From Parcubacteria group bacterium Gr01-1014_38 (GTDB lineage: Bacteria; Patescibacteriota; Andersenbacteria; UBA10190; CAIZMI01), in assembly GCA_007376145.1 (NCBI GenBank), contig VMFP01000001.1, positions 122,835-186,834 of the forward strand: DNA of 64,000 nt, given 5' to 3'. The notes beneath the pieces are model-generated. The model saw only the letters and a list, made by a program, of their open reading frames with translations. It had not been told where the DNA came from and searched no databases. This document shows positions 1-24,765 of the stretch, in pieces. The position numbers and the translations under genes were made by a program. Positions within the stretch are counted from its first letter, which is position 1, and each line of letters opens with the position of its first letter.

Positions 1-1133
1 TCTGTCCCGCGGACGCCAAACCCCCCGGGGACGGCAATGCCGGCGGCATGCTGGAGTTCTTCCACGGGGAATTTCCCAGACTCAATCTGCTCCGCGTCTA
101 CCCACCAGAGGTCGAGACTGCGGCCATGCGCCCACGCAGCAGCTTTCAGCGCTTCGATGAGGCTCATGTACGTGTCCTTCATGTTGAGGTACTTCCCGAC
201 CATCGCGATGCGCACCGGCGGCTTGCGCCGCTTGATGGTGGCGACGAGGCGGTGCCAGATTCGATCATTGCGCGGGCGGAAGCCCAGCCCAAGTTTTTGC
301 GCGATGATGCGGTCAAGTCCGTGTGCTTCCATGTGGAGCGGGACTTCGTACATGCTCCCGACCGTTGGGACGGGAATCACCGACGCCACGTCCACATTGG
401 CGTAGAGGCTCAACTTTTCCAGTTGGGACTTTGAAATCGGATGGTCCGCACGGGCAATGATGACATCGGGTTGGATGCCGATGGCGCGAAGGTCCCGGAC
501 CGAATTCTGCGCTGGCTTTGTCTTAATTTCATCGCTGGCGGCGAGGTACGGCAGGAATGCGACGTGGACGTAGAGGACATTCTCCTTGCCGTCGTCGGCG
601 GCGAGTTGGCGTACGGCTTCCAGGAAGTGCGCGCCTTCGTAGTCGCCGACGGTTCCGCCCACTTCCACCAGGTGGATTTCTGCGTGACTCCGCCGGGCCG
701 CGGCCCACATGCGCCGCTTCACTGCATCGGTGACGTGCGGGATCATCTGCACAGTTTTTCCTAAGTACTTTCCTTCCCGCTCGGCCTGCGTCACCTCAAG
801 GTAAATTTGACCGGTCATCACCGAGCAATCTTTCGTCAGCGACTGATCGAGGAAACGTTCGTAGTGGCCGAGGTCGAGGTCGGTTTCCGCTCCGTCGTCC
901 GTCACGAACACTTCCCCGTGCTCACCGGGGTTCAACGTTCCCGCGTCCACATTGAGGTACTGATCAAATTTCTGCGTGTTCACGCGGAACCCGCGCGCCT
1001 TCAAGATGTTCCCGATGCTTGCGGTCGTTACACCCTTCCCAAGTCCAGAGAGCACCCCGCCGGTGACGATGATGAGCTTCGGGATTTTCCCGCGAGTGCG
1101 TTCGCGCCGCGCTGGTTTATGCTTTGCCACCAT
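1..1133 (-). CDS. pyrG: CTP synthase, N-terminal ~377 codons; gene runs off the window start
   Basis: Reverse-strand translation from ATG (1131-1133) gives MVAKHKPARRERTRGKIPKLIIVTGGVLSGLGKGVTTASIGNILKARGFRVNTQKFDQ, a PyrG synthetase N-terminus. Near position 1-60 the frame reads ELQHAAGIAVPGGFGVRG, the glutamine-amidotransferase motif. The frame stays open to the window edge. It is absent from the ORF track only because no stop lies in the window. Confidence 0.85.
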   Translation of the reverse strand, partial: MVAKHKPARRERTRGKIPKLIIVTGGVLSGLGKGVTTASIGNILKARGFRVNTQKFDQYLNVDAGTLNPGEHGEVFVTDDGAETDLDLGHYERFLDQSLTKDCSVMTGQIYLEVTQAEREGKYLGKTVQMIPHVTDAVKRRMWAAARRSHAEIHLVEVGGTVGDYEGAHFLEAVRQLAADDGKENVLYVHVAFLPYLAASDEIKTKPAQNSVRDLRAIGIQPDVIIARADHPISKSQLEKLSLYANVDVASVIPVPTVGSMYEVPLHMEAHGLDRIIAQKLGLGFRPRNDRIWHRLVATIKRRKPPVRIAMVGKYLNMKDTYMSLIEALKAAAWAHGRSLDLWWVDAEQIESGKFPVEELQHAAGIAVPGGFGVRGT

Positions 1134-1614
1134 CCGTCTTCTCCTTTCTGCTCCGGGGGGCGTCCTGCAGTTTTCCTCCGACGACGACCGTTACCTCCGC
1201 CTCGAGCCCGTGTGGGAATTCCAACGTGACCGTATGTTGGCCAGGTTCATGGATCGGCAGTGGGAGGCGGACCACATCCGCAGGCAGCGAGATGTGCAGC
1301 GCGTTCTCGATGGCAGCGACAACCTCCTTGGCCGTGACGGCTCCGTGAAGTTTCTCCTGCGGGCCAAGTGGTCGCTCCAGGCGAATGGTTTTTTGGTCCG
1401 TGAGCTCCGCGAGTCTCTGCATCGTCGCGAGTTCTTCTTCCGAGGCCCGTGTGGCCCGTGCCTTCTGTGCTTCGGCTGTTCGGGCGTGGCTTCCGGTTGC
1501 GACGGCGGCCAGTTCGCGGGGGAAGAGGAAATTCCGTGCGTAGCCATCGGCGACTTCGACCACCTCGCCGGCCTGGCCGAGGTTCTTGACATTCTCGAGG
1601 AGTACCACCTTCAT
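1117..1614 (-). CDS. rplI: 50S ribosomal protein L9
   Basis: 165 aa starting MKVVLLENVKNLGQAGEVVEVADGYARNFLFP, a typical L9 N-terminus. TAA stop. Overlaps the pyrG start by 17 nt. Confidence 0.85.
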   Translation of the reverse strand: MKVVLLENVKNLGQAGEVVEVADGYARNFLFPRELAAVATGSHARTAEAQKARATRASEEELATMQRLAELTDQKTIRLERPLGPQEKLHGAVTAKEVVAAIENALHISLPADVVRLPLPIHEPGQHTVTLEFPHGLEAEVTVVVGGKLQDAPRSRKEKTDGGKA

Positions 1615-4575: not shown

Positions 4576-4614
4576 GTGTGGTCAGCGTAGCCGAGAACAG
4601 CGCCACGAGACAAG

Positions 4615-4648
4615 AAAAAAGACCCGTTCCTCCGGAACGAGTCTTTTT
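4615..4648 (-). terminator. intrinsic terminator hairpin (A6-stem10-loop3-stem10-T5), bidirectional in shape
   Basis: AAAAAAGACCCGTTCCtccGGAACGAGTCTTTTT: a 10-bp stem with one mismatch flanked by A and T runs, sitting between the end of the 4670..5323 gene and the aspS start. Confidence 0.55.
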
Positions 4649-4669
4649 GGTAGGCTCTTCTTCCTCCTT

Positions 4670-5323
4670 TCAGACGGCCGTCGCTTGCGGAGCTGGGTGC
4701 ACCTGAATTTGGTCTCCGGTGAAGCGAAGAAGGTAGTCGGGCTGAATCGGCGTGGCCGCGTCACCGAGGCGATTCCCGTCTGCGTCCTTCCGCCACACCT
4801 TCACGGGGTTACCGAGGTTGTCAAGCAAAGGCTTGCGAGCCGTGAGGCAGATGTCCACCGCGTGTTCCCCGCAGACCTCTTGGCCGCCCACGATGAGGGG
4901 GTTGAGGAACGCTCGCACCTGCCACATTGCTTCTACGCACATCGTGTGGAGTGCCTGCTGAACAAGAGGGCGAGTATTGACGAACTGATTGGTCGGTTGG
5001 GCGTACTCACACCGTGCGAACACGAAGCGCACCACGGAGAATCCCTTGTTGTCCTGATTGCGCCGCTGCGAGAAGGCGTCCACCATTGCATAGCCACCCC
5101 GCTCCAACTCGCCGAGGAACTCGACGAGCCCGACGTTCTCGACGGGCGCGATGGCGGGTTCACGGCTTGGAGGGCGCGCACGCTTGCGCGTCTCGTCCGG
5201 TGTCTCGTCCTCGCGTTGATGTATACAGCGAGGGACGACCTTGGGGTTGGAGAAGCTGAACTGCAAAGCGATCAGCCTCACCGCTCTGCTCACGTTGATC
5301 AGACCTTGCGTTGTAGCGTCCAC
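4670..5323 (-). CDS. hypothetical protein (GTG start)
   Basis: 217 aa with balanced composition, in contrast to the Arg-rich plus-strand shadow ORF. GTG start preceded by AAAGGAG with 6-nt spacing. No recognised domain. Confidence 0.5.
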   Translation of the reverse strand: MDATTQGLINVSRAVRLIALQFSFSNPKVVPRCIHQREDETPDETRKRARPPSREPAIAPVENVGLVEFLGELERGGYAMVDAFSQRRNQDNKGFSVVRFVFARCEYAQPTNQFVNTRPLVQQALHTMCVEAMWQVRAFLNPLIVGGQEVCGEHAVDICLTARKPLLDNLGNPVKVWRKDADGNRLGDAATPIQPDYLLRFTGDQIQVHPAPQATAV

Positions 5324-5639
5324 TACCGGCTCCTTTCAAAAAGAGAAACGAACTCGTTGACAACGAGCGAAAGCTTTGAAAGAACGAAGCTCCGTACTCT
5401 ACCAGCGTCCTACACGCGCGCACCTTCACTGCGTAGTCGCTGGCCGGAGTAATGCCCCTGGGACCAGGGAGTCGGGAACGCCCGCGTTGTTCCTTAGATC
5501 CCTCCAGGAGTGGCGGCGCTGTGGAGGGACAGCACCGCCGCTCCCGGAGACGTCTCTGTGGATACAAGCTTGTACCGGTGGGTATCGCTTGAAACCCCAG
5601 GGAGAACCCCCATGACGAACATCGCACTATACCGCGGGC

Positions 5640-5668
5640 TTGTCTGTCTGTCAAGAGGCCGCTAGACT
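5640..5668 (+). promoter_or_regulatory. putative sigma70-type promoter for tRNA-Lys (TTGTCT-N17-TAGACT)
   Basis: -35 TTGTCT at 5640-5645, 17-nt spacer, -10 TAGACT at 5663-5668, 6 nt before the tRNA 5' end. Palindromes GAGACGTCTC (5546-5555) and TACAAGCTTGTA (5563-5574) lie upstream. Confidence 0.35.
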
Positions 5669-5674
5669 GCGCCT

Positions 5675-5749
5675 GCCCCCGTGGCGTAATGGCAGCGCAC
5701 GCGCCTTTTAAGCGCTGAGGTCCCAGTTCGAATCTGGGCGGGGGCACCA
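5675..5749 (+). tRNA. tRNA-Lys (anticodon UUU), CCA encoded
   Basis: Cloverleaf read by eye: acceptor GCCCCCG/CGGGGGC, anticodon stem CGCGC/GCGCT with loop CTTTTAA (UUU), T-arm CCCAG-TTCGAATC-CTGGG, discriminator A, CCA. Confidence 0.85.
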
Positions 5750-5961
5750 CACTTCGCCCTCGGCCCGGCTCGGGCTTCGCGTGTCAGGCCATGCCGCTTC
5801 ATCTCGGGGGCCTTCGAGTACTTCCCGCGAAGTGTGCCCCGCGAAGCGAAGTAGCGAAGTGGGGCACCCTATGCTATGCTTGTGGATAAGGGGATCTCAG
5901 CTTTCAGCAGGATTTTCCGGACGTCCTCCACTCGTACCAGCACAAAACACCACATCGTGAC

Positions 5962-6597
5962 ATGAAGCGTGCCTTTCTCTTCTCCAGCGGGATCACCGCG
6001 ATCATCGTCGGAGTGTTTGCCCTTGCCTACCTCACGTCGGCGGGCACCAGTCAATTCGCTTTCACGGGCCAGGCGACCGTCCGTGGGCACGACGTGAGCG
6101 GGAAAACCATGGACGTGTACTTTACGAAGCTCTCGGAGCGCGCGCAGGCGCTGGGGTTGGGGAACAGCATCACGGTCAGCGTCGGCAGCGCGACATTCCA
6201 TAAGCGCGCGGCGGACGGAACGCTCCGGCGGGTGAAACAGGGGAACATCGCTGTCGGGGATCGAGCGACCGTCCGGGGGTCGGTGAAGAACAACGACCGC
6301 TTCGTCGCGTCCCGGGTCGAGGTTGTGGATACGGGTTTCGTCATGACCGGGAAGCTCCGAACATTTAATCGGACTCTCCGCCGGATGACGGTTGACGTCA
6401 CCACCTCGACGTACAAGCCCACTCGGTACCAAGACAAGACTGTGGAGTTCATCTTCTCCGAAGCGACGAAGTTTTATACGCAGGGCGTGGGCAAATCAAT
6501 TGAGGACGTGACCGCGAGCGATCAGAAGGTCCGCGTGCAAGGAAAGGAAGTGGGTACAGACCTCGAGGTCACGTCCATGAATGAAAATGTTCCCTAA
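5962..6597 (+). CDS. hypothetical membrane-anchored/secreted beta-rich protein
   Basis: 211 aa with an N-terminal TM/signal helix (ITAIIVGVFALAYL) and an ATG start. Same architecture as the next gene: hydrophobic N-terminus, then repeated V/T-rich strands. Confidence 0.55.
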   Translation: MKRAFLFSSGITAIIVGVFALAYLTSAGTSQFAFTGQATVRGHDVSGKTMDVYFTKLSERAQALGLGNSITVSVGSATFHKRAADGTLRRVKQGNIAVGDRATVRGSVKNNDRFVASRVEVVDTGFVMTGKLRTFNRTLRRMTVDVTTSTYKPTRYQDKTVEFIFSEATKFYTQGVGKSIEDVTASDQKVRVQGKEVGTDLEVTSMNENVP

Positions 6598-6619
6598 TTC
6601 TTAACACACCAAACGACAC

Positions 6620-6994
6620 ATGAAGAAACGCGCTTTTCTGCTCTTGGTGGGCATCGCCGCAGCTTTCGTGGTGGTCGCGAGCATCGCCGCCGTGACCCTC
6701 GCACAGACGCCGCCCTACGCGGTCAAGATCCGCGTGGTGGATAAAATCGAGTCGGCGAAGATCTTCGAGGGATTTGTGCTCGAACAGACCCGAGGGAAGA
6801 CCTCGATTCTCGGGGATCAGATAAACTTCCGGGTCCTGAGCACGACCACCGCGTTTACGAAGGGAAGCAAGGGGCGGTCAACCAAAGACTGGCTCAGCGG
6901 TCTCAAGAACGAGGACGTTGTGACGGCCACCGGGTGGTATCGGTCGTCCGACAAGACATTCGAGCTGGCGAAGGTCGTCAATCGCTCACGGTAG
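6620..6994 (+). CDS. hypothetical small secreted/membrane-anchored protein, likely distant paralog of the preceding gene
   Basis: 124 aa with an N-terminal hydrophobic helix (LLLVGIAAAFVVVASIAAV), a 22-nt gap from the upstream gene, and a TAG stop. Confidence 0.55.
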   Translation: MKKRAFLLLVGIAAAFVVVASIAAVTLAQTPPYAVKIRVVDKIESAKIFEGFVLEQTRGKTSILGDQINFRVLSTTTAFTKGSKGRSTKDWLSGLKNEDVVTATGWYRSSDKTFELAKVVNRSR

Positions 6995-7083
6995 TCGGAG
7001 CCTCTCAAACGCGGGCGCGCCAAACCGACCGGGCAATGCCCGGCGGGGCGTTGCGCCCGTCCGGCAGGTAGGCGAGACGCCTC

Positions 7084-8178
7084 TTATCTCCGCAGTGTTC
7101 CGGCTTCCACAAACCGGCGGAGAAGTTCTTCTTGTTCGCGATTCACTCGCTTGGGGACGTCAATCACGGTCGTGATGACGTGATCGCCTCGTTTCCCCGT
7201 CTCTCCGCGTCTCCCGATCACGATGCCGCGTCCACGCAAGCGGAATTCCGATCCCGACGGCGTGCCTCGAGGGATCTCCAGGGTCGTTTTCCCATCGAGC
7301 GTCTCTACTTCGACGGTTCCTCCTAAGACTGCGGTGGTGAACGGCACGGCAATGGTTGAGCGGACGTCCTGTTCGTCTCGGGAGAAGGCGGGATGCCGCT
7401 TCACGCGCACGGTCACATACAAGTCTCCCGCTGGTCCCCTGCGCGGCCCGACTTCTCCCTCACCGGTGATGCGGATGCGTGTGCCGTCATCGAGCCCCGC
7501 CGGAATTTTCACGCGCAGCGTCTCGCGCTGATGGGCACGGCCGGTCCCACTGCACGCCGAGCAAAGCGTCTGCGGTCGCTTCCCTTCCCCACCGCAGTCG
7601 GGACACACCGACCGGTGCAGCATGGCGCCGAAGAACGTTCGGACCTGGCGCTCGACAACACCGGAGCCGGCACAGGTTGCGCAGGTGGCAATGGGCGTGC
7701 CGGGTTTCGCTCCGCTCCCCCCGCAGGTGGGGCACGTGCGGAGACGCTCAAGGATCAGGTCGCGCGTCGTCCCGCGTGCCATCTCTTCGAACGAGATTGT
7801 CACGTCGGTTGCACGGTCATCGCCACGCTCCGCCACGCGCGTTCGGCGACGCCCAAAGGCGCCGCCGAAGAGATCTCCGAAGAGGTCCTCGAACCCCGTA
7901 AATTCCCGCTGGAACACCTCGAACGGGTCGAAGCCGAAGCCCTGTGCGCCGCCGGGAGACCCGCCACTCTCGAACGTAGCCCCAAACCGGTCGTACTGCG
8001 CGCGTTTCTCCGAGTCGCCGAGAACCTGGTACGCCTCGTTGATTTCCTTGAATTTCTCTTCGTTCCCCGTCGGCTTGTCGGGGTGATACTGAAGTGCGAG
8101 TTTCCGGTAGGCACGCTTCACCTCGTCCGCGGAAGCGGAGCGTTCAACGCCGAGGGTGTGGTAGTAGTCTTTGGGCAT
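7084..8178 (-). CDS. dnaJ: molecular chaperone DnaJ
   Basis: J domain ([31 protein letters not shown]), G/F-rich linker, four CxxCxGxG zinc-finger repeats, and a C-terminal substrate-binding region. Confidence 0.95.
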
Positions 8179-8195
8179 CGGGCTTTTGAGTTCTG

Positions 8196-8456
8196 TTACC
8201 GCTCGTACACGTCTTTGCGGTGCCCAATCGTGGCGAATAACGCGGTATCGGTTTCCGTGAAGAGGAAGAGCACGCGATAGACCTGCGTCACCCGGAAGGA
8301 GAACGTCAACGACTCCCCGTGGAGTTTCTTGACGTGGAGTCGTGGGTCACGCCAGTTCTTCCGAAAGATCCCTTCCTGCCTGCGGTACAGGACCTGAATG
8401 TCTCGTGGGAGTTTCCGGAACTGTTTAGAAAATTCGTCAGTGTAGAGAATCTTCAT
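8196..8456 (-). CDS. RelE/ParE-family type II toxin
   Basis: 86 aa. The pattern ...[44 protein letters not shown] fits the RelE/ParE fold signature (G..YR..Y...IGHR.D.Y). Its start overlaps the upstream antitoxin stop (ATGA). Lower GC than neighbours. Confidence 0.7.
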
Positions 8457-8686
8457 ACGCGCCGGCGGACACGCCCTGCACGCCAGTCACGGACTGCACG
8501 ACGCAGGGAGGCGCGGAGCCGCGCGGCATCTTTGTAGTCATTGAACGATTCCTCTGGGATCTCCGAGCTTAGCTCCTCGAAGACTCGCCGGGAGAGCTCC
8601 GAGAGGGAAAATCCATAGCGAAGCGCCAAGCGAGCGAGACGATCTTTCGTCTGCTTCGGGAGGTCAATCGTGAGTCTAGTGCTCAT
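8453..8686 (-). CDS. ribbon-helix-helix (ParD/CopG-like) antitoxin
   Basis: MSTRLTIDLPKQTKDRLARLALRYGFSLSELSRRVFEEL... has an RHH beta-strand plus helices. 4-nt overlap with the toxin. The longer 131-aa ORF extension upstream is Arg/Cys-rich and is not used. Confidence 0.6.
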   Translation of the reverse strand: MSTRLTIDLPKQTKDRLARLALRYGFSLSELSRRVFEELSSEIPEESFNDYKDAARLRASLRRAVRDWRAGRVRRRV

Positions 8687-8836
8687 TGGAGAGGAGTGTA
8701 CCTTGGCTAAACATTCGGAGTCAAAGAGCGCGAGCTTCCGGAGCCGGAAGGCGAAGTGGGGCCTGCACCGCGAAGTCCCGCCGCAGGCGGGACGAAGTGG
8801 GGTACGCGCGCTTGATATCGTCGGAAGGGGCACCTC

Positions 8837-8865
8837 TTGACACCCCAAGGACAGAATAGTAATCT
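8837..8865 (+). promoter_or_regulatory. sigma70-like promoter TTGACA-N17-TAATCT
   Basis: TTGACA at 8837-8842 and TAATCT at 8860-8865. An AAAGAGGTGAGG ribosome-binding site follows just before the ATG at 8910. Confidence 0.5.
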
Positions 8866-8909
8866 TGAGATGGCATTGGTTCCTTCTTTTAAAGAGGTGA
8901 GGTGCGCTG

Positions 8910-9200
8910 ATGTTGAATCAGGAGGGTATGTCGGAGGTTGGCTCACACATCCAGAAGGCTGTTGGTCTACGGCTCCGCATTAGGCAGCTTTCCTCTCAAG
9001 AATTTGCGGAGTTCCATGATTTGATTCGGCGCATGAGCGTTGATGACCTCTGGCAATTCGTACTTCTTGTGGAGAAGTACTCAGGTGGGCCGCCTCCCGA
9101 GAGCGAGCTCGAAGCAATGAGGACCAGGGTGTGGGAAAAGCTTCGGCAACACCTAATCCAGAGTCGGCTCGAGCGCAGCGAAGAATCAGAGACTTTGTAG
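8910..9200 (+). CDS. hypothetical small protein (96 aa) with its own promoter and RBS, inside the low-GC insert
   Basis: Strong SD (AAAGAGGTGAGG), canonical upstream promoter, non-shadow composition. Opposite strand to the chaperone operon. No recognised domain. Confidence 0.5.
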   Translation: MLNQEGMSEVGSHIQKAVGLRLRIRQLSSQEFAEFHDLIRRMSVDDLWQFVLLVEKYSGGPPPESELEAMRTRVWEKLRQHLIQSRLERSEESETL

Positions 9201-9236
9201 TTCCTGCTATTCGTGACCCAGAAGGGATCATCTGGG

Positions 9237-11108
9237 TCACTTTTTCTCTGCCTCTCCCTCGACGGTCTTTCCGCCAGCGGGTTCTTGAACTGGCTGTTGC
9301 GCAGCCTGCTGCTGATACATCGCAGCTCCGATCTTCATGACCGTCTGGTTTAGGTCTTCGATGGCTTTCTTGAGCGCGGGGGTGTCTTCGCCTTTCTGCG
9401 AGGACTGCACAGCCTCGAGCTTTCCTTCAATCTCCTTCTTCACGTCGGCCGGCACTTTGTCGCCCATTTCCCGGAGAGTCTTTTCCGTCTGGTACACCAT
9501 CGCTTCCGCTTGATTACGGGTTTCGATCGCTTCCTTCTTCTTCTGGTCTTCCTCCGCATGCGCGGCCGCATCCCGCGTCAGACGCTCGACTTCGTCCTTC
9601 GAAAGGCCGGAAGACCCTTGGACGGTAATTTTCTGCTCCCGGCTCGTGGCCTTGTCCTTTGCGGAGACGGTCAGGATCCCGTTCGCGTCAATGTCAAAGG
9701 AGACCTCGATCTGGGGGACGCCGCGCGGCGCGGGCGGAATGCCGTCGAGGATGAATCGCCCCAGACTCTTGTTATCGGCAGCCATCTCGCGCTCTCCCTG
9801 GAGGACGTTGATTTCCACCTGCGGCTGGCTGTCGGACGCCGTCGAGAAGACTTGTGACTTCCGCGTCGGCACCGTCGTGTTCTTCGCAATGAGCGGGGTG
9901 CGAACGCTCCCGAGCGTTTCGAGGCCCAGCGTGAGTGGTGTCACGTCGAGGAGGAGGACGTCCTTCACGTCGCCCTGGAGAATCCCGCCCTGGATCGCGG
10001 CGCCGACCGCGACGACTTCATCCGGGTTTACGTCCTTATGCGCCTTTTTTCCAAACAAGCCTTCGACGGCCTCGATCACCTTCGGCATGCGGATTTGGCC
10101 GCCGACGAGGACCACTTCGTCGATATCCTTCGGCTCCAGTTTGGCTTCCGCCAGTGCTTCTTTCGTGAGCGCGATGGTGCGGTCCACGTATTCGCCGACG
10201 AGCTCTTCGAGCTTCGCGCGGGTGAGCTTTAGGAGGAGGTGCTTCGGGCCGGAGGCATCGGTGGTGATGAATGGCTGGTTGATCTCCGTTTCCGACACTG
10301 TGGAGAGCTCGATCTTCGCCTTCTCCGCGGCTTCCTTGAGGCGCTGGAGCGCGATGGGATCCTTGCTCAAGTCGATGCCGTACTGCTTCAGGAACTCACC
10401 TGTCATCCAGTCAATAATCTTCTGGTCAAAGTCGTCTCCGCCGAGGTGCGTATCCCCGTGCGTGGCTTTCACTTCGATGGTTTCCGGAGCGACCTCCAGG
10501 ATGGAGAGGTCGAACGTTCCGCCGCCCAGGTCGTATACGACGATCCGTTCTTCTTTCTTCTTCTCGAGCCCATAGGCCAAGGCAGCCGCCGTCGGTTCGT
10601 TCAGGATGCGGCGGACGTTGAACCCGGCAATCGTGCCGGCATCTTTCGTCGCCTTACGCTGGGAGTCGTCGAAGTACGCGGGGACGGTGATGACGGCATC
10701 GGTGATGTTCTCGCCAAGTTTCTCCTCTGCATCGGCCTTGAGCTTCTGCAAGACCATGGCGGAGATTTCCGCCGGCTTATACCACTGGTCCCCCATATTC
10801 ACCTCGACGCCGCCCTCCGCACTCTCGCGGATATCAAACGGCAGGAGGTCTTGGTCGCGCTGGATTTCGGGGTCGGAGAACCGCCGGCCGATGAGTCGCT
10901 TAATGGAGTAAAGTGTGTGTTCGGGGTTCGTCACCGCTTGGCGTTTCGCCGTAATGCCGACGTGACGATCGCCGGTCTTCGCGATTGCAACGACGGACGG
11001 AGTTGTCCGCGCTCCCTCGCGATTTTCGAGAACGCGCGGCTTGCCACCTTCGATGATGGCCATACAGGAGTTCGTCGTTCCGAGGTCGATTCCAAGAATC
11101 TTGGGCAT
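9237..11108 (-). CDS. dnaK: molecular chaperone DnaK (Hsp70)
   Basis: 623 aa. Begins [18 protein letters not shown], with DLGGGTFD and the full nucleotide-binding and substrate-binding domains. Confidence 0.97.
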
Positions 11109-12389: not shown

Positions 12390-12416
12390 TTAGCACTCTC
12401 GCGCTTTGAGTGCTAA
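12390..12416. promoter_or_regulatory. CIRCE operator (HrcA binding site), perfect consensus
   Basis: TTAGCACTC-tcgcgcttt-GAGTGCTAA: a 9-bp inverted repeat with a 9-nt spacer, immediately upstream of the hrcA start codon. Confidence 0.9.
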
Positions 12417-12475
12417 AAGTATGCGCCCCCGCTCTTGCCGTTGTCAAGGGTTGTTTGCTACGGTGAAGGGCTTCC

Positions 12476-18502: not shown

Positions 18503-19558
18503 TCAAGGAAATGTATTGTGCCACCACATTTTGCACTGCTCCGGGTACTTTTCCCCAAGGAACTGAACCGGTGATTTGAGCCCGAGGGCGTGGTGCGGCC
18601 GCTCGGTGTTGTGCCAGAGGAGATGCTCGACGAGCCGGACGTTGAACCGTCGAACGTCAAGGAGGAGTCCCGCGTGATAGTTCACGAACTCCTCCTGAAG
18701 GGTGCGGTTGAACCGCTCGTCGTGCGGGTTCATGCGCGGGCACTGCGGGTACGTCTTCCAGTGGGTGAGGTGCTGGTTCCGGACCTCGGCGGCAAAGCGC
18801 TTCTTGAACTCACTCCCGTTATCGGAGAGGACGTAGACCCAGGGAACCGGGAAGACCCGACGGACAAGGCGGAAGAACTCCGCCGCAGCCTGGGAGGCAT
18901 GACTCCGTGTCGCCCACGCGAAGGAGAACCGGGAGTGCGTATCGGTGAACGTGAGGAGGTACCGCCGCGTCCCGTGGAGGAACCGTTCAATGGTATCAAG
19001 GGTCACGAGATGGCCGGGATAGTCCGCGTGGAAGCCCTTCGGCTTCCGGAGGACATGTTCTCGCTTCCTCGGAACGATCCGCCCGTCGTGCCGGACCTTC
19101 TCCGGGAACAGGCGGAGGCCGCCGAGGTCGTGAATGAGACGAGCGACCGTGCGCGCAGAGGGAACGGAGAGCCTCCGTGCGATGCAGAACGGTCGGAGGA
19201 GCACGGCACACTTCGCGGGGCCGAGGTTCGGGTGTTCCTCACGGAGACGCCGGATCTCCGCGAGGACCTCCGGGGGCCACTCCGCGGTTCTCCGCCGGAG
19301 CGTGTGCGGCTTCGTACTCTTCGGGTTCAGGGCTTCCGGCATCCCACCACCCTCACGGAGCTGCTGCTTCCAGAGGAAAAGGGTTCTCCGAGACACACGG
19401 AAGGCCTCCTGGGTGGCCGCGAGGCCGTGCCGCTCCCAGAAGGCGAGGATGCGGGCGCGGTCTGTCGCTGAGCGGGTGATCATATGGGACCAGCGGAGCG
19501 CATAGTCCGACAGGCGCACAAACCCCCGGACACCGTACGAGAGACGGAGCACCCGCAT
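18503..19558 (-). CDS. DDE transposase (rve integrase core), IS481-like single ORF
   Basis: 351 aa with an N-terminal HTH region and a DDE triad context (LVTLDT ... SDNGSEF ... ERFNRTLQEE). The C-terminal codons ...WWHNTFP* run 7-9 nt past the IS terminus into flanking DNA to reach the TGA. Confidence 0.8.
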   Translation of the reverse strand: MRVLRLSYGVRGFVRLSDYALRWSHMITRSATDRARILAFWERHGLAATQEAFRVSRRTLFLWKQQLREGGGMPEALNPKSTKPHTLRRRTAEWPPEVLAEIRRLREEHPNLGPAKCAVLLRPFCIARRLSVPSARTVARLIHDLGGLRLFPEKVRHDGRIVPRKREHVLRKPKGFHADYPGHLVTLDTIERFLHGTRRYLLTFTDTHSRFSFAWATRSHASQAAAEFFRLVRRVFPVPWVYVLSDNGSEFKKRFAAEVRNQHLTHWKTYPQCPRMNPHDERFNRTLQEEFVNYHAGLLLDVRRFNVRLVEHLLWHNTERPHHALGLKSPVQFLGEKYPEQCKMWWHNTFP

Positions 19559-22183: not shown

Positions 22184-22258
22184 CGTTTGCTGCTTCGTGT
22201 TGCTACTTCAGGGAAGTAGCGGGTGTCCTTTCACAATCTGAATCTGGAGGAACAAGCG

Positions 22259-23173
22259 ATGAGAAGATCCTTTCTAGAAAAGCTTGCTCGGTATTCCGAC
22301 GATTACTCTGCGGAGTGCCTCGTTCCCACCGGCAGCTTTTCGCAAGGCTGCTCAGTGGCCGATCACCGAAAAATGTGTGAGGAGTTTGATTACCACGTGT
22401 ATCCTCTTTCTTGGTTTGATGATGAGACTCCACAGCGACGGGTGTTCCTCTCCGCCTACTACATTGATCGCTACCCCATTACTAACGCGCAGTTTGCCCT
22501 TTTCGTTCTTGAGACTGGTTACGAGACAGTGGCTGAACAGTCGGAAGGTGGACTGGTGTTCACTCGGCGCGGGTGGGAGTGGGTAAGAGGTGCGTGCTGG
22601 TACAGACCGACGGGTCCGCGAAGTTCCGTCGGCAGGCGTCAGTATCACCCCGTTTGTCAGATTTCTTGGCGTGACGCTCATTCCTACGCCGCTTGGAGAA
22701 GTAAAAGGCTTCCAACGGAGTCTGAATGGGAAAAGGCCTGCCGAGGCACTGATGGAAGAAGATGGCCGTGGTCTAATGAGTGGAAACCAGGTGTTTGTGG
22801 CTCAGTAGAATATCACGCAAAAGCCAACTTTAACACTCGAGAGGAGTGGCGCAACTGGTGGGAATCAGTCTATCGGCCCCACCTTACTTTCACCAAGCCG
22901 GTTGGATCTTACCCTAGGTCAGTGTCTGTGTATGGCATCCACGACATGGTGGGCTGTTTGTACCAATGGGTAGAAGACTGGTATGGCCCCTACAGCAGGA
23001 AAGCTACGTATAGAGGAGAATACGGTTACTTTCTAGGAAGAAACACGCTGAAGGTTGTGCGTGGCGGATGCTGGATGAATTTTAAGTTCCAAGTCAGAAC
23101 GTGTGAACGCATGGCGTCAGCCCCGCTTGTCTCTACATTCGTGCACGGTTTCCGATGCGCTCGCACCGCGTAG
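22259..23173 (+). CDS. formylglycine-generating-enzyme (FGE-sulfatase/SUMF1) domain protein
   Basis: Motifs YPITNAQFALFV..GY.T.AE, HPVCQISWRDAHSYAAWRSKRLPTESEWEKACRG, and VVRGGCW. The start is moved from the listed GTG (22223) to the ATG with a GGAGG SD. Lower GC. Confidence 0.7.
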   Translation: MRRSFLEKLARYSDDYSAECLVPTGSFSQGCSVADHRKMCEEFDYHVYPLSWFDDETPQRRVFLSAYYIDRYPITNAQFALFVLETGYETVAEQSEGGLVFTRRGWEWVRGACWYRPTGPRSSVGRRQYHPVCQISWRDAHSYAAWRSKRLPTESEWEKACRGTDGRRWPWSNEWKPGVCGSVEYHAKANFNTREEWRNWWESVYRPHLTFTKPVGSYPRSVSVYGIHDMVGCLYQWVEDWYGPYSRKATYRGEYGYFLGRNTLKVVRGGCWMNFKFQVRTCERMASAPLVSTFVHGFRCARTA

Positions 23174-23281
23174 GACGGTTTGTGTTCGGTTTTACCGAGT
23201 CTCAGATTTATACACAATCGAGTCAGAAATCAGGCTGAGTCTTGGTGGCTCGGCGTAATGACAAAGAAAGAGAGGCATCCT

Positions 23282-24034
23282 ATGGACAGACCTAATGTAG
23301 GACTCGTTGTTACAGGTGGAAGTACCGGTATCGGTCGCAGCATTGCTCTCGAATATGCTGCAGCCTATCCAAAGTCGAGCGTTGTCCTTGTTGCACGGGA
23401 GAAAGGTAGGCTCACAAAGGTTAAAGGAGAGATTGAGAGGCGCGGATCAAGGTGTATTGTATATGCAGGCGACCTGCGTGACCCAGCATTCATTCAGGGT
23501 TTCATTAGGGACATAAGGCTTCGAGGTCTCTCGATAACCCATCTGGTGAATAATGTGGGGTCGTCGCGCGAAGGCTCAGGAATTCTGAGCGTCACCGGGG
23601 AGGAGTGGTACGCTTCACTTCAGCTGAACCTAAACGCCGCATTTTTCTGCGCTAAAGGCGTGGTCGAACTGATGCTAAGCAAGGGTTGGGAGGGGGCGAT
23701 TGTGAATGTAAGCGCAATTGCTGCCCGTATCGGAATGCCTAAAGTTGCATTCACAACAGCGAAAGCTGGGCTGATTGGAATGACACGGTCACTCGCTCGT
23801 GTATTAGCCGCTCATGGAATTCGAGTGAACGCAGTTCTCCCTGGAGCTATCGATACTCCCGCAACTCGACATTGGACAGAAAGACAACGCAAGGACATCT
23901 GCCGGAAGATTCCTCTCGCCCGCATCGGCAAGCCCGAGGAAGTGGCTTCGGTCGTGGTATTCCTGCTTTCAGAGAAAGCCTCGTACGTTACCGGCCAGAC
24001 CATTGACGTTAATGGTGGCTGGCACATGAAATGA
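23282..24034 (+). CDS. short-chain dehydrogenase/reductase (SDR, FabG-like)
   Basis: TGGSTGIGRS Rossmann motif, NNVG, and a catalytic S...Y...K context (SAIAARIGMPKVAFTTAKAG). The start is chosen at the ATG preceded by AGAGAGG. Confidence 0.75.
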   Translation: MDRPNVGLVVTGGSTGIGRSIALEYAAAYPKSSVVLVAREKGRLTKVKGEIERRGSRCIVYAGDLRDPAFIQGFIRDIRLRGLSITHLVNNVGSSREGSGILSVTGEEWYASLQLNLNAAFFCAKGVVELMLSKGWEGAIVNVSAIAARIGMPKVAFTTAKAGLIGMTRSLARVLAAHGIRVNAVLPGAIDTPATRHWTERQRKDICRKIPLARIGKPEEVASVVVFLLSEKASYVTGQTIDVNGGWHMK

Positions 24035-24050
24035 GGTTACTGATTATTCC

Positions 24051-24083
24051 GAGCGTATTCACGCGGTGGGTACGCTCTTTTCT
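24051..24083 (+). terminator. intrinsic terminator (7-bp stem GAGCGTA/TACGCTC, 13-nt loop, TTTTCT)
   Basis: Located 17 nt downstream of the SDR stop. Confidence 0.5.
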
Positions 24084-24267
24084 GTGTCTGTACAAAGATG
24101 GATGATGTGGAATATGCTTTCGTGGCTTCGAAGAGATTCTGAGGCAACGGACCTAGTACCGCTTTCGTATCAGTAGTGCAAAAAAGTGCTTGAAAGACAG
24201 ATTCGTGACCTTTCACTGAAGCTTATGATTCAATGCCAACCACGAGATTCAAAAAGTCAACCAAGTA

Positions 24268-24765
24268 ATGTTTATCGTCTCTATGGGGAATAACGCGTTG
24301 GTAGAGTGTACAACTCTCTACGGGGATCGGAAGTTAGTGAAAGCAAGTGCACTGACGTTCCGCCCAGCGGCTTACGCACTTGTTTTGCGTGAAGGCAAGT
24401 TGTTGCTCGTAAATACGCGGAGTACAGGAAAGTGGTTCTTCCCGGGCGGCGCAATCGAGCGGGGGGAGACGATGAGAGATGGTATCCTGCGAGAGGTCCG
24501 GGAGGAAACCGGAGTCGAAATTGAAGTCAGGGAATTGTTTCAGTGTAAAGAGAGCTTTTTTTACTATGATCCTTGGGACGCCGCATACCATAGTTTCTCC
24601 TTCTTCTACACCGCCGTTCCAAAGACCTTTGAATTGACGGAAGCGTATAACGCAGAGGATAAGGAGGCGAAAAGTCCCGCGTGGGTAGACGTGAAACAAC
24701 TTAAAGCAAGCGATTTCCAGTTACTCGCGGGAGAAATATTTGAGGCATTCATTCGCACAACATAA
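24268..24765 (+). CDS. NUDIX hydrolase
   Basis: Nudix box GGAIERGETMRDGILREVREETGV (GX5EX7REUXEEXGU). Lower GC. An AT-rich intergenic region lies upstream. Confidence 0.8.
   Translation: MFIVSMGNNALVECTTLYGDRKLVKASALTFRPAAYALVLREGKLLLVNTRSTGKWFFPGGAIERGETMRDGILREVREETGVEIEVRELFQCKESFFYYDPWDAAYHSFSFFYTAVPKTFELTEAYNAEDKEAKSPAWVDVKQLKASDFQLLAGEIFEAFIRTT

Follow-up and report, generated by a model that had tools for sequence, protein, structure and literature searches.

How does a toxin-antitoxin pair come to stand directly in front of dnaJ in a bacterial heat-shock locus, and does it have a bearing on dnaJ itself? The question is raised by a 64-kb stretch of DNA, here called the window, from the metagenome-assembled genome of Parcubacteria group bacterium Gr01-1014_38, one of a group of groundwater bacteria of ultra-small size. 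Its minus strand carries the genes hrcA, grpE and dnaK, then a gap of 1,058 nt, and then dnaJ. The gap contains genes for a 77-aa antitoxin and an 86-aa toxin, a 96-aa open reading frame (ORF) on the plus strand and the stub of another dnaJ start. The original prediction saw in it a low-GC insert that splits the dnaK-dnaJ junction. Based on a comparison with related loci, we consider it probable that the pair is a functional relBE-type module, that it was inserted long ago and has since been inherited vertically, and that it provides the promoter of a relB-relE-dnaJ transcription unit.

The pair before dnaJ is shared by a clade and absent from its outgroup

Five other related lineages, L083, L088, L089, L182 and L183, have the same pair immediately before dnaJ (L-numbers denote the related loci and contigs that were compared). 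The nearest relatives of the toxin, with 70-82% identity, all lie directly upstream of dnaJ (L083-L087, L088, L089/L090, L182 and L183), and in those syntenic contigs dnaJ is followed by the same two small reverse-strand genes. Relatives with the same genes at the same position had been named beforehand as the finding that would speak against an insert, and this is largely what the five lineages contain. The pair is absent from all 80 GTDB Patescibacteria dnaJ loci and from the outgroup L099, whose DnaK and DnaJ have 78% and 54-55% identity, respectively. In the sense of an addition to the ancestral layout, the term insert is borne out by L099 and the 80 loci; the qualification recent and low in GC is not. 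One member of the clade has lost the pair. L001 is placed inside the clade with a clade support of 100% and a bootstrap value of 98% for the window together with L001; the DnaK tree backs this placement weakly and the tree of the 211-aa neighbour conflicts with it.

More distant members of the toxin family (54-67% identity) occur in unrelated housekeeping contexts, such as between mreB and dus or between fpg and an inositol phosphatase gene. None of the toxin relatives in JGI metagenomes (identity up to 71%) is located beside dnaJ or dnaK, and no copies of the family were found on viral contigs. In the literature searches, no account of a toxin-antitoxin pair located within a dnaK-dnaJ locus came up.

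Then, how old is the pair at this position? The GC content of 8196-9200 is 56.2%, as compared with a window mean of 61.2% (standard deviation 3.4% for 1-kb segments), which corresponds to z = -1.45. Segments as low in GC make up 8.9% of the total, and six other regions are equally low or lower. The GC content at third codon positions (GC3) of the toxin gene is 0.74, close to the 0.69 +/- 0.07 of host genes, and the low overall GC of the gene stems from second codon positions (GC2 0.33), i.e. from amino-acid composition. The z value and the host-like GC3 contradict the claim of a distinguishable AT-richer segment. Synonymous sites are saturated between the lineages, with proportions of synonymous differences of 0.48-0.81 for the pair and 0.61-0.78 for dnaJ, and the dN/dS ratios are 0.05-0.13 for the pair (toxin 0.05-0.12, antitoxin 0.05-0.13) and 0.09-0.18 for dnaJ. 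Because synonymous sites are saturated and dN/dS is low, the pair must have co-diverged with the operon under strong purifying selection. The saturation runs counter to a recent insertion, and so does the fact that five other related lineages have the pair at the position that it occupies here.

The lowest-GC stretch of the window lies elsewhere, at 22223-24765 (49-53% GC, GC3 0.49-0.55 versus about 0.69 in the host), and encodes an FGE-sulfatase-like protein, a short-chain dehydrogenase and a NUDIX hydrolase. A foreign origin is more plausible for this stretch than for the toxin-antitoxin region.

The toxin is of RelE type

The toxin has 92 homologues, each of about 85 aa, and an antitoxin homologue precedes the toxin gene in most of the homologous loci. 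A profile of 38 family members, searched against the PDB, gave a full-length match to M. jannaschii RelE3 (3bpq_B, E 7e-8) and also matched Mycobacterium RelE2 and E. coli RelE; no ParE was among its PDB matches. The AlphaFold model of the toxin has a predicted local distance difference test score (pLDDT) of 92.4. In a Foldseek search with this model, RelE 3bpq, YafQ and YoeB came out on top with a template-modelling (TM) score of about 0.77 and a probability of 1.00, and ParE2 first appeared at rank 34. We assign the toxin to the RelE type rather than the ParE type because of the RelE3 profile match and because its model best matches RelE, YafQ and YoeB. The sequence identity to the solved RelE proteins is 15-28%. 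Among the 38 sequences R55 and R80 never vary, and conservation is at least 90% for R61, H79 and Y84. These residues align with the R, HR and Y of RelE3 and are putative catalytic positions of a RelE-type nuclease. From its family membership, the toxin is presumably a ribosome-dependent mRNA endonuclease.

The Pfam models ParE_toxin and ParE_like were matched at E < 0.01 by 21-22 of the 38 family members. For the antitoxin, whose start was taken as the ATG common to its homologues, the Pfam models of ribbon-helix-helix (RHH) proteins RHH_1 (E 0.008, 16.6 versus 20.5 bits) and RHH_5 (E 0.01) responded below their cut-offs, and the antitoxin family profile matched RHH antitoxins weakly (MazE6, 0.033; MazE7; CopG, 0.68). 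The original prediction of a RelE/ParE toxin with a ParD-like antitoxin is thus retained for RelE and given up for ParE, and the designation ParD finds no support for the antitoxin. As it had described, the two genes lie on the chaperone strand between dnaK and dnaJ, with the antitoxin first and an ATGA overlap. The activity of the toxin and its neutralisation by the antitoxin would follow the pattern of such modules. The pair is a new, divergent subfamily of relBE-type type II modules; at its core it is a relBE-type module of the ordinary kind, and what is unusual is how stable and informative its position is.

A conserved promoter-like site may link the pair to dnaJ

A scan of the operon strand from 13000 to 7000 for promoters reported only the one associated with the HrcA operator CIRCE (controlling inverted repeat of chaperone expression) and a site in front of the antitoxin gene (Table 1), whose position suggests that the antitoxin mRNA would be nearly leaderless. 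The latter site is kept in six lineages (the window, L083, L088, L089/L090, L182 and L183) in the form TTGAC(T/G)-N17/18-TA(C/G/T)(A/G)(C/A)T. In five lineages (the window, L083, L088, L182 and L183) the spacer between toxin and dnaJ measures 5-19 nt, and it contains no terminator. The spacer in the window had been put at 18 nt and is in fact one nucleotide shorter.

L001, which lacks the pair, is informative here. It keeps GTACACTCCTCCCC-ATG, the counterpart of the -10 element and leader of the window, fused to a former dnaJ start that is 74% identical at the nucleotide level to the 5' end of the functional dnaJ of the window. No other observation speaks as strongly for a role of the promoter in dnaJ expression as this remnant does. 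In L099 no promoter-like site was found before dnaJ, and the ancestral dnaJ probably relied on read-through across an antisense gene. The earlier proposal that the pair supplies a promoter for dnaJ is supported by the conserved promoter-like site and is plausible. The pair probably supplies the nearest promoter of dnaJ: its sigma-70-like promoter would be the proximal promoter of a relB-relE-dnaJ transcription unit, and HrcA/CIRCE read-through across the antisense gene may contribute in a secondary role. Co-transcription with dnaJ, autoregulation and any coupling to the heat-shock response would be expected features of such a unit.

A dnaJ stub probably marks the arrival of the pair

The stub in the gap has 60% identity to DnaJ residues 1-24 (tblastn, E 1e-5) and is 69% identical at the nucleotide level to the 5' end of dnaJ in L099, including the upstream AGGAAC..ATG. 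Its start is 33 nt from the start of the 96-aa gene, and the real dnaJ of L099 is 31 nt from the antisense gene of that locus. Because the stub sits where dnaJ starts in L099, the pair apparently arrived together with a replacement dnaJ start. L083 has a stub homologous to this one, and so has L182, where the ATG is lost. L089 has a second stub right after the toxin, with a 16-nt spacer as in L083 and about 430-450 nt of extra DNA before the real dnaJ, and L001 has a stub 115 nt before its dnaJ. No dnaJ stub was found in any of about 75 other Patescibacteria loci. The hallmark of gene-end replacement, a displaced fragment beside a restored gene, is thereby seen in the window, L083, L182, L001 and L089.

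These stubs represent three independent junctions (the window type, L001 and L089), all at codons ~21-25. A GC-rich palindrome adjoins or interrupts each of the stubs, which suggests a preferred junction or a hairpin-dependent process. An integron attC site was considered for the L001 palindrome and rejected, as the order of the motifs is wrong. The possibility that the stub was recently copied from the dnaJ start of the window itself was also rejected, since the two have no nucleotide similarity. A continuation of the stub as "RKLAL" after a 61-nt insertion was dropped; CCGGAAGCTCGCGC belongs to a repeat unit described below. The only 14-nt repeat in common with dnaJ recurs by chance within the toxin gene. 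No part of the 1,058-nt gap is left unassigned and none of it encodes an integrase, and no clear flanking att direct repeats were detected at the locus.

We infer the following course of events. The ancestral layout would have been dnaK, a small antisense gene and dnaJ. A recombination event with its right-hand crossover inside dnaJ would have brought in the pair, the incoming DNA carrying its own promoter, both toxin-antitoxin genes and a replacement dnaJ 5' end, and the first 25 codons of the original dnaJ would have been left as a dead stub. The pair would then have become fixed upstream of dnaJ in the common ancestor of this Parcubacteria clade and would have been inherited vertically under strong purifying selection.

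Layout of the locus and its neighbours

The window locus is present identically in independent ENA and Logan assemblies. CIRCE lies between a promoter-like site and the first gene and the order is hrcA-grpE-dnaK-dnaJ, the arrangement of an HrcA/CIRCE heat-shock operon. The operator has 0 mismatches, is the sole match in the window at up to 3 mismatches, and 0.02 such matches would be expected by chance. The perfect CIRCE and the gene order had both been foreseen, and the genes are supported by Pfam. The dnaJ gene is parted from dnaK by the convergent 96-aa gene, the stub and the pair. Three features had been overlooked in the original prediction, namely the stub, the promoter-like site before the antitoxin and the terminator of the 96-aa ORF. 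It is recognised that in other bacteria the dnaK-dnaJ spacing varies and the two genes can be expressed differentially (PMC12077118). As the dnaK-dnaJ gaps across Patescibacteria dnaJ loci span 51 to 4,450 nt, a split junction is not unusual in itself.

Table 1. Features of the dnaK-dnaJ locus (window coordinates unless a related locus is named)
Feature	Position	Strand	Remarks
Promoter-like site before CIRCE and hrcA	12418-12447	-	TTGACA-18-CATACT; 10/12 positions match
CIRCE operator	12390-12416		perfect inverted repeat TTAGCACTC-N9-GAGTGCTAA, 2 nt upstream of hrcA ATG
hrcA	12387-11671	-	ORF call; Pfam HrcA on identical locus L081
grpE	11671-11159	-	ORF call; Pfam GrpE on identical locus L081
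dnaK	11108-9237	-	ORF call; Pfam HSP70 on identical locus L081
Intrinsic terminator of 96-aa gene	9213-9240	+	10-bp hairpin over dnaK stop, then TTTTTCTCTG on plus strand only
96-aa gene (NCBI locus tag G01um101438_155)	8910-9200	+	convergent with dnaK
Putative promoter of 96-aa gene	8837-8842 and 8860-8865	+	TTGACA-17-TAATCT; inside dnaJ-stub antisense (LGVS, DYY codons)
dnaJ 5' pseudogene stub	8802-8876	-	codons 1-25 (MPSQDYYSVLGVSRGAPSDDIKRAY); open frame continues to 8721
Repeat block	8727-8802	-	two units, CCCCACTTCG, short variable hairpin, CTTCGCGG..; between stub and toxin-antitoxin promoter
Stub-junction palindrome, window	8777-8791		6-7-bp stem
Stub-junction palindrome, L001	3956-3989		15-bp stem
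Stub-junction palindrome, L089	750-775		9-bp stem
Promoter-like site before antitoxin	8695-8724	-	TTGACT-18-TACACT; ends 8 nt before antitoxin ATG
Antitoxin, 77 aa	8453-8686	-	RHH-like N-terminal part, basic C-terminal tail
RelE-type toxin, 86 aa (NCBI locus tag G01um101438_153)	8196-8456	-	profile and structure matches
Spacer from toxin stop to dnaJ ATG	8179-8195	-	17 nt; without promoter-like or terminator-like site
dnaJ, functional, 364 aa	7084-8178	-	Pfam DnaJ, DnaJ_CXXCXGXG and DnaJ_C, the full domain set

Upstream of the pair, L090 carries a 411-aa transposase-like gene (26-1261, minus strand) directly adjoining the toxin-antitoxin promoter, with matches to HTH_28, HTH_23 and HTH_32 and an rve-like C-terminal motif recognised by eye. 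The pair of L089 is identical to that of L090, and the two sequences diverge immediately upstream of the -35 box; the L089 contig ends 185 nt upstream of the antitoxin gene, too short to show the transposase-like gene. The window itself holds other mobile or toxin-antitoxin-like genes, namely an insertion-sequence-type transposase with an rve integrase core and HTH_32 (18503-19558, minus strand) and a PIN_3-domain protein (39150-39617, minus strand, E 7e-22), a possible VapC-like toxin.

The 96-aa gene is older than the pair

The 96-aa ORF had been predicted with its ribosome-binding site, and its coordinates are borne out, with AAAGAGGTGAGG at 8891-8902. The promoter assigned to it is present as described, including the 17-nt spacer; the attribute canonical does not fit, as TAATCT matches TATAAT at 3/6 positions and the promoter scan left the site unreported. 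On the dnaK strand, the hairpin of its intrinsic terminator is not followed by a U-tract. Terminators were scanned in three loci, the window, L083 and L099, and in each of them the hairpin of the antisense gene overlaps the dnaK stop codon and draws its T-tract from EKK/DKK codons at the DnaK C-terminus. The gene has a strong Shine-Dalgarno sequence (GAGGTGA); most window genes, dnaK, dnaJ, aspS and the 124-aa and 211-aa genes among them, have none.

A full HMMER scan of 1.8 billion representatives returned one homologue of the 96-aa protein, P0094 (107 aa, 38% identity, E 4e-7). Its gene is located between dnaK and dnaJ on the antisense strand of L099, a locus devoid of the toxin-antitoxin pair. 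The two genes have no similarity by blastn; in tblastx the sense frame scored 57 bits versus at most 33 for other frames, and the codon-position identities are.52/.58/.44. This sequence comparison identifies the 96-aa ORF as a genuine gene, and one that occupied this position before the pair did, the order being given by its only homologue, which is syntenic in pair-free L099. A spurious ORF was considered and rejected by the syntenic homologue and the sense-frame test. The codon score is ambiguous, with 12% of shadow ORFs as high, and a word-indexed search with the protein before the full scan had returned only the query itself. The gene can no longer be counted as part of an insert, nor did the insert split the dnaK-dnaJ junction; the antisense gene had split the operon before the pair arrived.

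That the 96-aa protein has no recognisable function agrees with our searches: Pfam, NCBIfam and PADLOC gave no match, a profile search added no members, and its four-helix AlphaFold model (pLDDT 75, moderate) found no fold match in the PDB. The slot after dnaK is occupied by unrelated ORFs in related loci, i.e. L083 4107-4397 (96 aa), L182 969-1250 (93 aa), L001 3455-3835 (126 aa) and L088 742-1089, the last in the sense direction; overall the slot ORFs are 93-126 aa long and mostly antisense. Homology of the 96-aa protein to the antisense ORFs of L001, L083 and L182 or to the sense ORF of L088 was looked for and not found. L083 and L182 are sisters with 99% identity in the dnaK-side flank and unrelated slot contents.

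Repeat units and a DnaA-box

Between the stub and the promoter-like site of the pair lies a repeat block that includes the hairpin 8777-8791 and a palindrome at 8735-8750. It has 76% identity to L083, measured over 8723-8820. L083 and L182 share ~98% identity in the central hairpin stretch and agree completely in the promoter-proximal CCGGAAGCTCGCGCGTTGACG, although their neighbouring coding DNA has diverged. L182 has one repeat unit only. In dispersed form the unit reads CCCCACT(T/C)CG, a variable short hairpin and CTTCGCGG(G/T)GCAGG, and it is found at 8727-8802 and ~5800-5865 (minus strand) in the window, at 4600-4700 and 7466 in L083, at 4226-4300 in L182 and at 4279-4320 in L118. The unit around 5800-5865 is upstream of the 211-aa gene. 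The 10-mer element of the repeat has just three copies in the window, each on the minus strand (8802, 8761 and 5864), and these bracket the toxin-antitoxin pair, dnaJ and the 124-aa and 211-aa reverse-strand genes. ACTTCG clusters occur at no more than three places in the 64 kb.

Rfam detected only tRNA-Lys in 5600-9300 and no match to the repeat, and repeat-unit folding is clearly better than that of shuffled sequence in L118 only (z -3.2). The candidates for the units are an operator array, an element similar to repetitive extragenic palindromic (REP) sequences or a recombination site. The coding sequence of the DnaK C-terminal tail in L099 (2303-2325) resembles the second repeat unit, with 90-96% identity over 23-30 nt, and the repeat block could be partly derived from the dnaK 3' end. 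A perfect DnaA-box (TTATCCACA, minus strand) is located at 5881-5889, beside the tRNA-Lys gene (5675-5749), and is the only copy in the 64 kb. It is conserved at ~7443 in L083 and ~4205 in L182, adjoining the repeat unit that precedes the 211-aa gene. The match might be fortuitous, or it might hint at an origin or a DnaA-regulated site.

Discussion

The explanation that we favour, an old and vertically inherited relBE module whose promoter serves dnaJ, has to be held against several observations that weigh against it. Since the hairpin behind dnaK lacks a U-tract on the operon strand, most dnaJ mRNA could stem from transcripts that start at the CIRCE promoter and read through. The loss of the pair in L001 leans on the promoter remnant, because the gene trees conflict mildly. 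Taken as a single sequence, the toxin scores 17.4 bits with Pfam ParE_toxin (PF05016) against a cut-off of 23 and has no match in NCBIfam, and the antitoxin is called RHH-like from sub-threshold matches. The arrival could be due to one-sided homologous plus illegitimate recombination or to a site-specific element, and no integrase is present. All of the relatives are metagenome contigs.

What else might explain the locus? A recently acquired low-GC islet between dnaK and dnaJ would fit a GC content 5 points below the window mean and a toxin family scattered over unrelated contexts in other Patescibacteria. We regard it as very unlikely, since 8.9% of the 1-kb segments are as low, the toxin GC3 is host-like, the position is common to six lineages with a synonymous saturation equal to that of dnaJ, no copies are found on viral contigs, and the true outlier at 22.2-24.8 kb has a GC3 of ~0.5. 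An artefact of assembly or binning that joined unrelated DNA between dnaK and dnaJ is a concern with any metagenome-assembled genome; here it is hardly conceivable, because the locus is identical in the independent ENA and Logan assemblies and the same architecture recurs in five diverged lineages from other samples.

The two remaining alternatives accept the pair as genuine and differ in what it does now. As a selfish remnant, it would be all that is left of a larger integrative element aimed at the dnaJ 5' end, an addictive cargo that is kept because cells die on losing it and that has no role in dnaJ expression. A displaced start beside a restored gene is the footprint of gene-end integrators, the three independent stubs at codons ~21-25 with their GC-rich palindromes suggest a preferred site, and L090 has the transposase-like gene just upstream of the pair. 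None of the six lineages, however, showed an integrase or element ends, and L001 survived the loss of the pair and retained the promoter before its dnaJ start. The distance of 5-19 nt to dnaJ is likewise kept in 5/6 lineages, a later insertion having occurred in L089. We consider a role confined to selfish maintenance unlikely; as an origin of the pair, the same account is compatible with the favoured explanation and differs from it on present function only. Conversely, the pair might be a domesticated regulator, an RHH repressor with its co-repressor that sets DnaJ levels independently of HrcA and causes no growth arrest. Both genes are under purifying selection that equals or exceeds that on dnaJ, the promoter and the tight linkage to dnaJ are conserved, and dnaK and dnaJ are differentially expressed in other bacteria (PMC12077118). 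The conservation of the putative RelE-type catalytic positions argues for retained nuclease activity, and the same family occurs away from dnaJ, so that full domestication appears improbable, more doubtful than the selfish remnant.

When compared with known RelBE systems (M. jannaschii RelBE3 3bpq, E. coli RelBE and M. tuberculosis RelBE2), the pair shares the antitoxin-then-toxin order with overlapping stop and start codons, a RelE-fold toxin of ~85 aa with a conserved basic/H-R-x3-Y C-terminus, and a small antitoxin with a putative N-terminal DNA-binding part and a C-terminal tail. It differs in its low sequence identity of 15-28%, a toxin below the Pfam and NCBIfam cut-offs and an antitoxin that is RHH-like with weak support. 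It is also vertically stable and tied to dnaJ, whereas the usual modules are patchy and mobile. ParDE systems fall into the same superfamily, the responding Pfam models bear the names ParE_toxin and ParE_like, and an RHH antitoxin is typical of ParD; in contrast, RelE, YafQ and YoeB rank ahead of ParE2 in the structure comparison, and nuclease-type C-terminal residues are kept here.

The toxin-antitoxin-chaperone (TAC) systems of Mycobacterium combine HigBA with a SecB-like chaperone. The likeness lies in a type II pair that is co-directional with, and immediately before, a gene of a chaperone system in one transcription unit, which in our case is a predicted unit. Here the downstream gene is a full-length housekeeping dnaJ and not a SecB-like chaperone, and this toxin-antitoxin family also occurs without a chaperone neighbour; membership in TAC was rejected on both grounds.

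Genomic islands that integrate into gene 5' ends and restore the gene, for example those with dusA-specific integrases, also leave the old start as a stub, supply a new start with a promoter and reuse a short target. At our locus there is no integrase, no clear att repeats and no island-sized cargo, the cargo being a pair of ~0.5 kb, and the locus is not a demonstrable integrative element. The orphan arrays at Rhs, contact-dependent inhibition (CDI) and type VI secretion system (T6SS) effector loci have been explained by homology-facilitated illegitimate recombination (PMC5361080). They resemble the present locus in that incoming DNA is anchored by homology, an old fragment is left beside the new module and remnants are repeated. 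The differences are that here the 5' end of a housekeeping gene was displaced, that the remnants lie upstream and that the junctions are at codons 21-25.

What does the locus mean for these bacteria? Toxin-antitoxin pairs are usually patchy and mobile. Here a pair is fixed in a core heat-shock locus of very small genomes, with selection on it as tight as on the dnaJ gene that it precedes. If the promoter drives dnaJ, this would be a natural capture of a toxin-antitoxin module as the control element of an essential housekeeping gene. A bolder proposal, which we put forward tentatively and think unlikely to hold in full, is that codons 1-20/25 of dnaJ are a recurrent landing pad with a site preference in this clade, where DNA comes in time and again with a dnaJ start of its own and stubs are left behind, each beside a GC-rich hairpin. 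One such relBE pair would have been co-opted as promoter and regulatory module of dnaJ, and in a neighbouring slot unrelated small antisense genes would be exchanged between sister lineages. If this is true, the supply of DnaJ would be tied to antitoxin turnover rather than to HrcA/CIRCE. The dnaJ stubs are a readable record of foreign DNA entering a compact genome with the target gene preserved.

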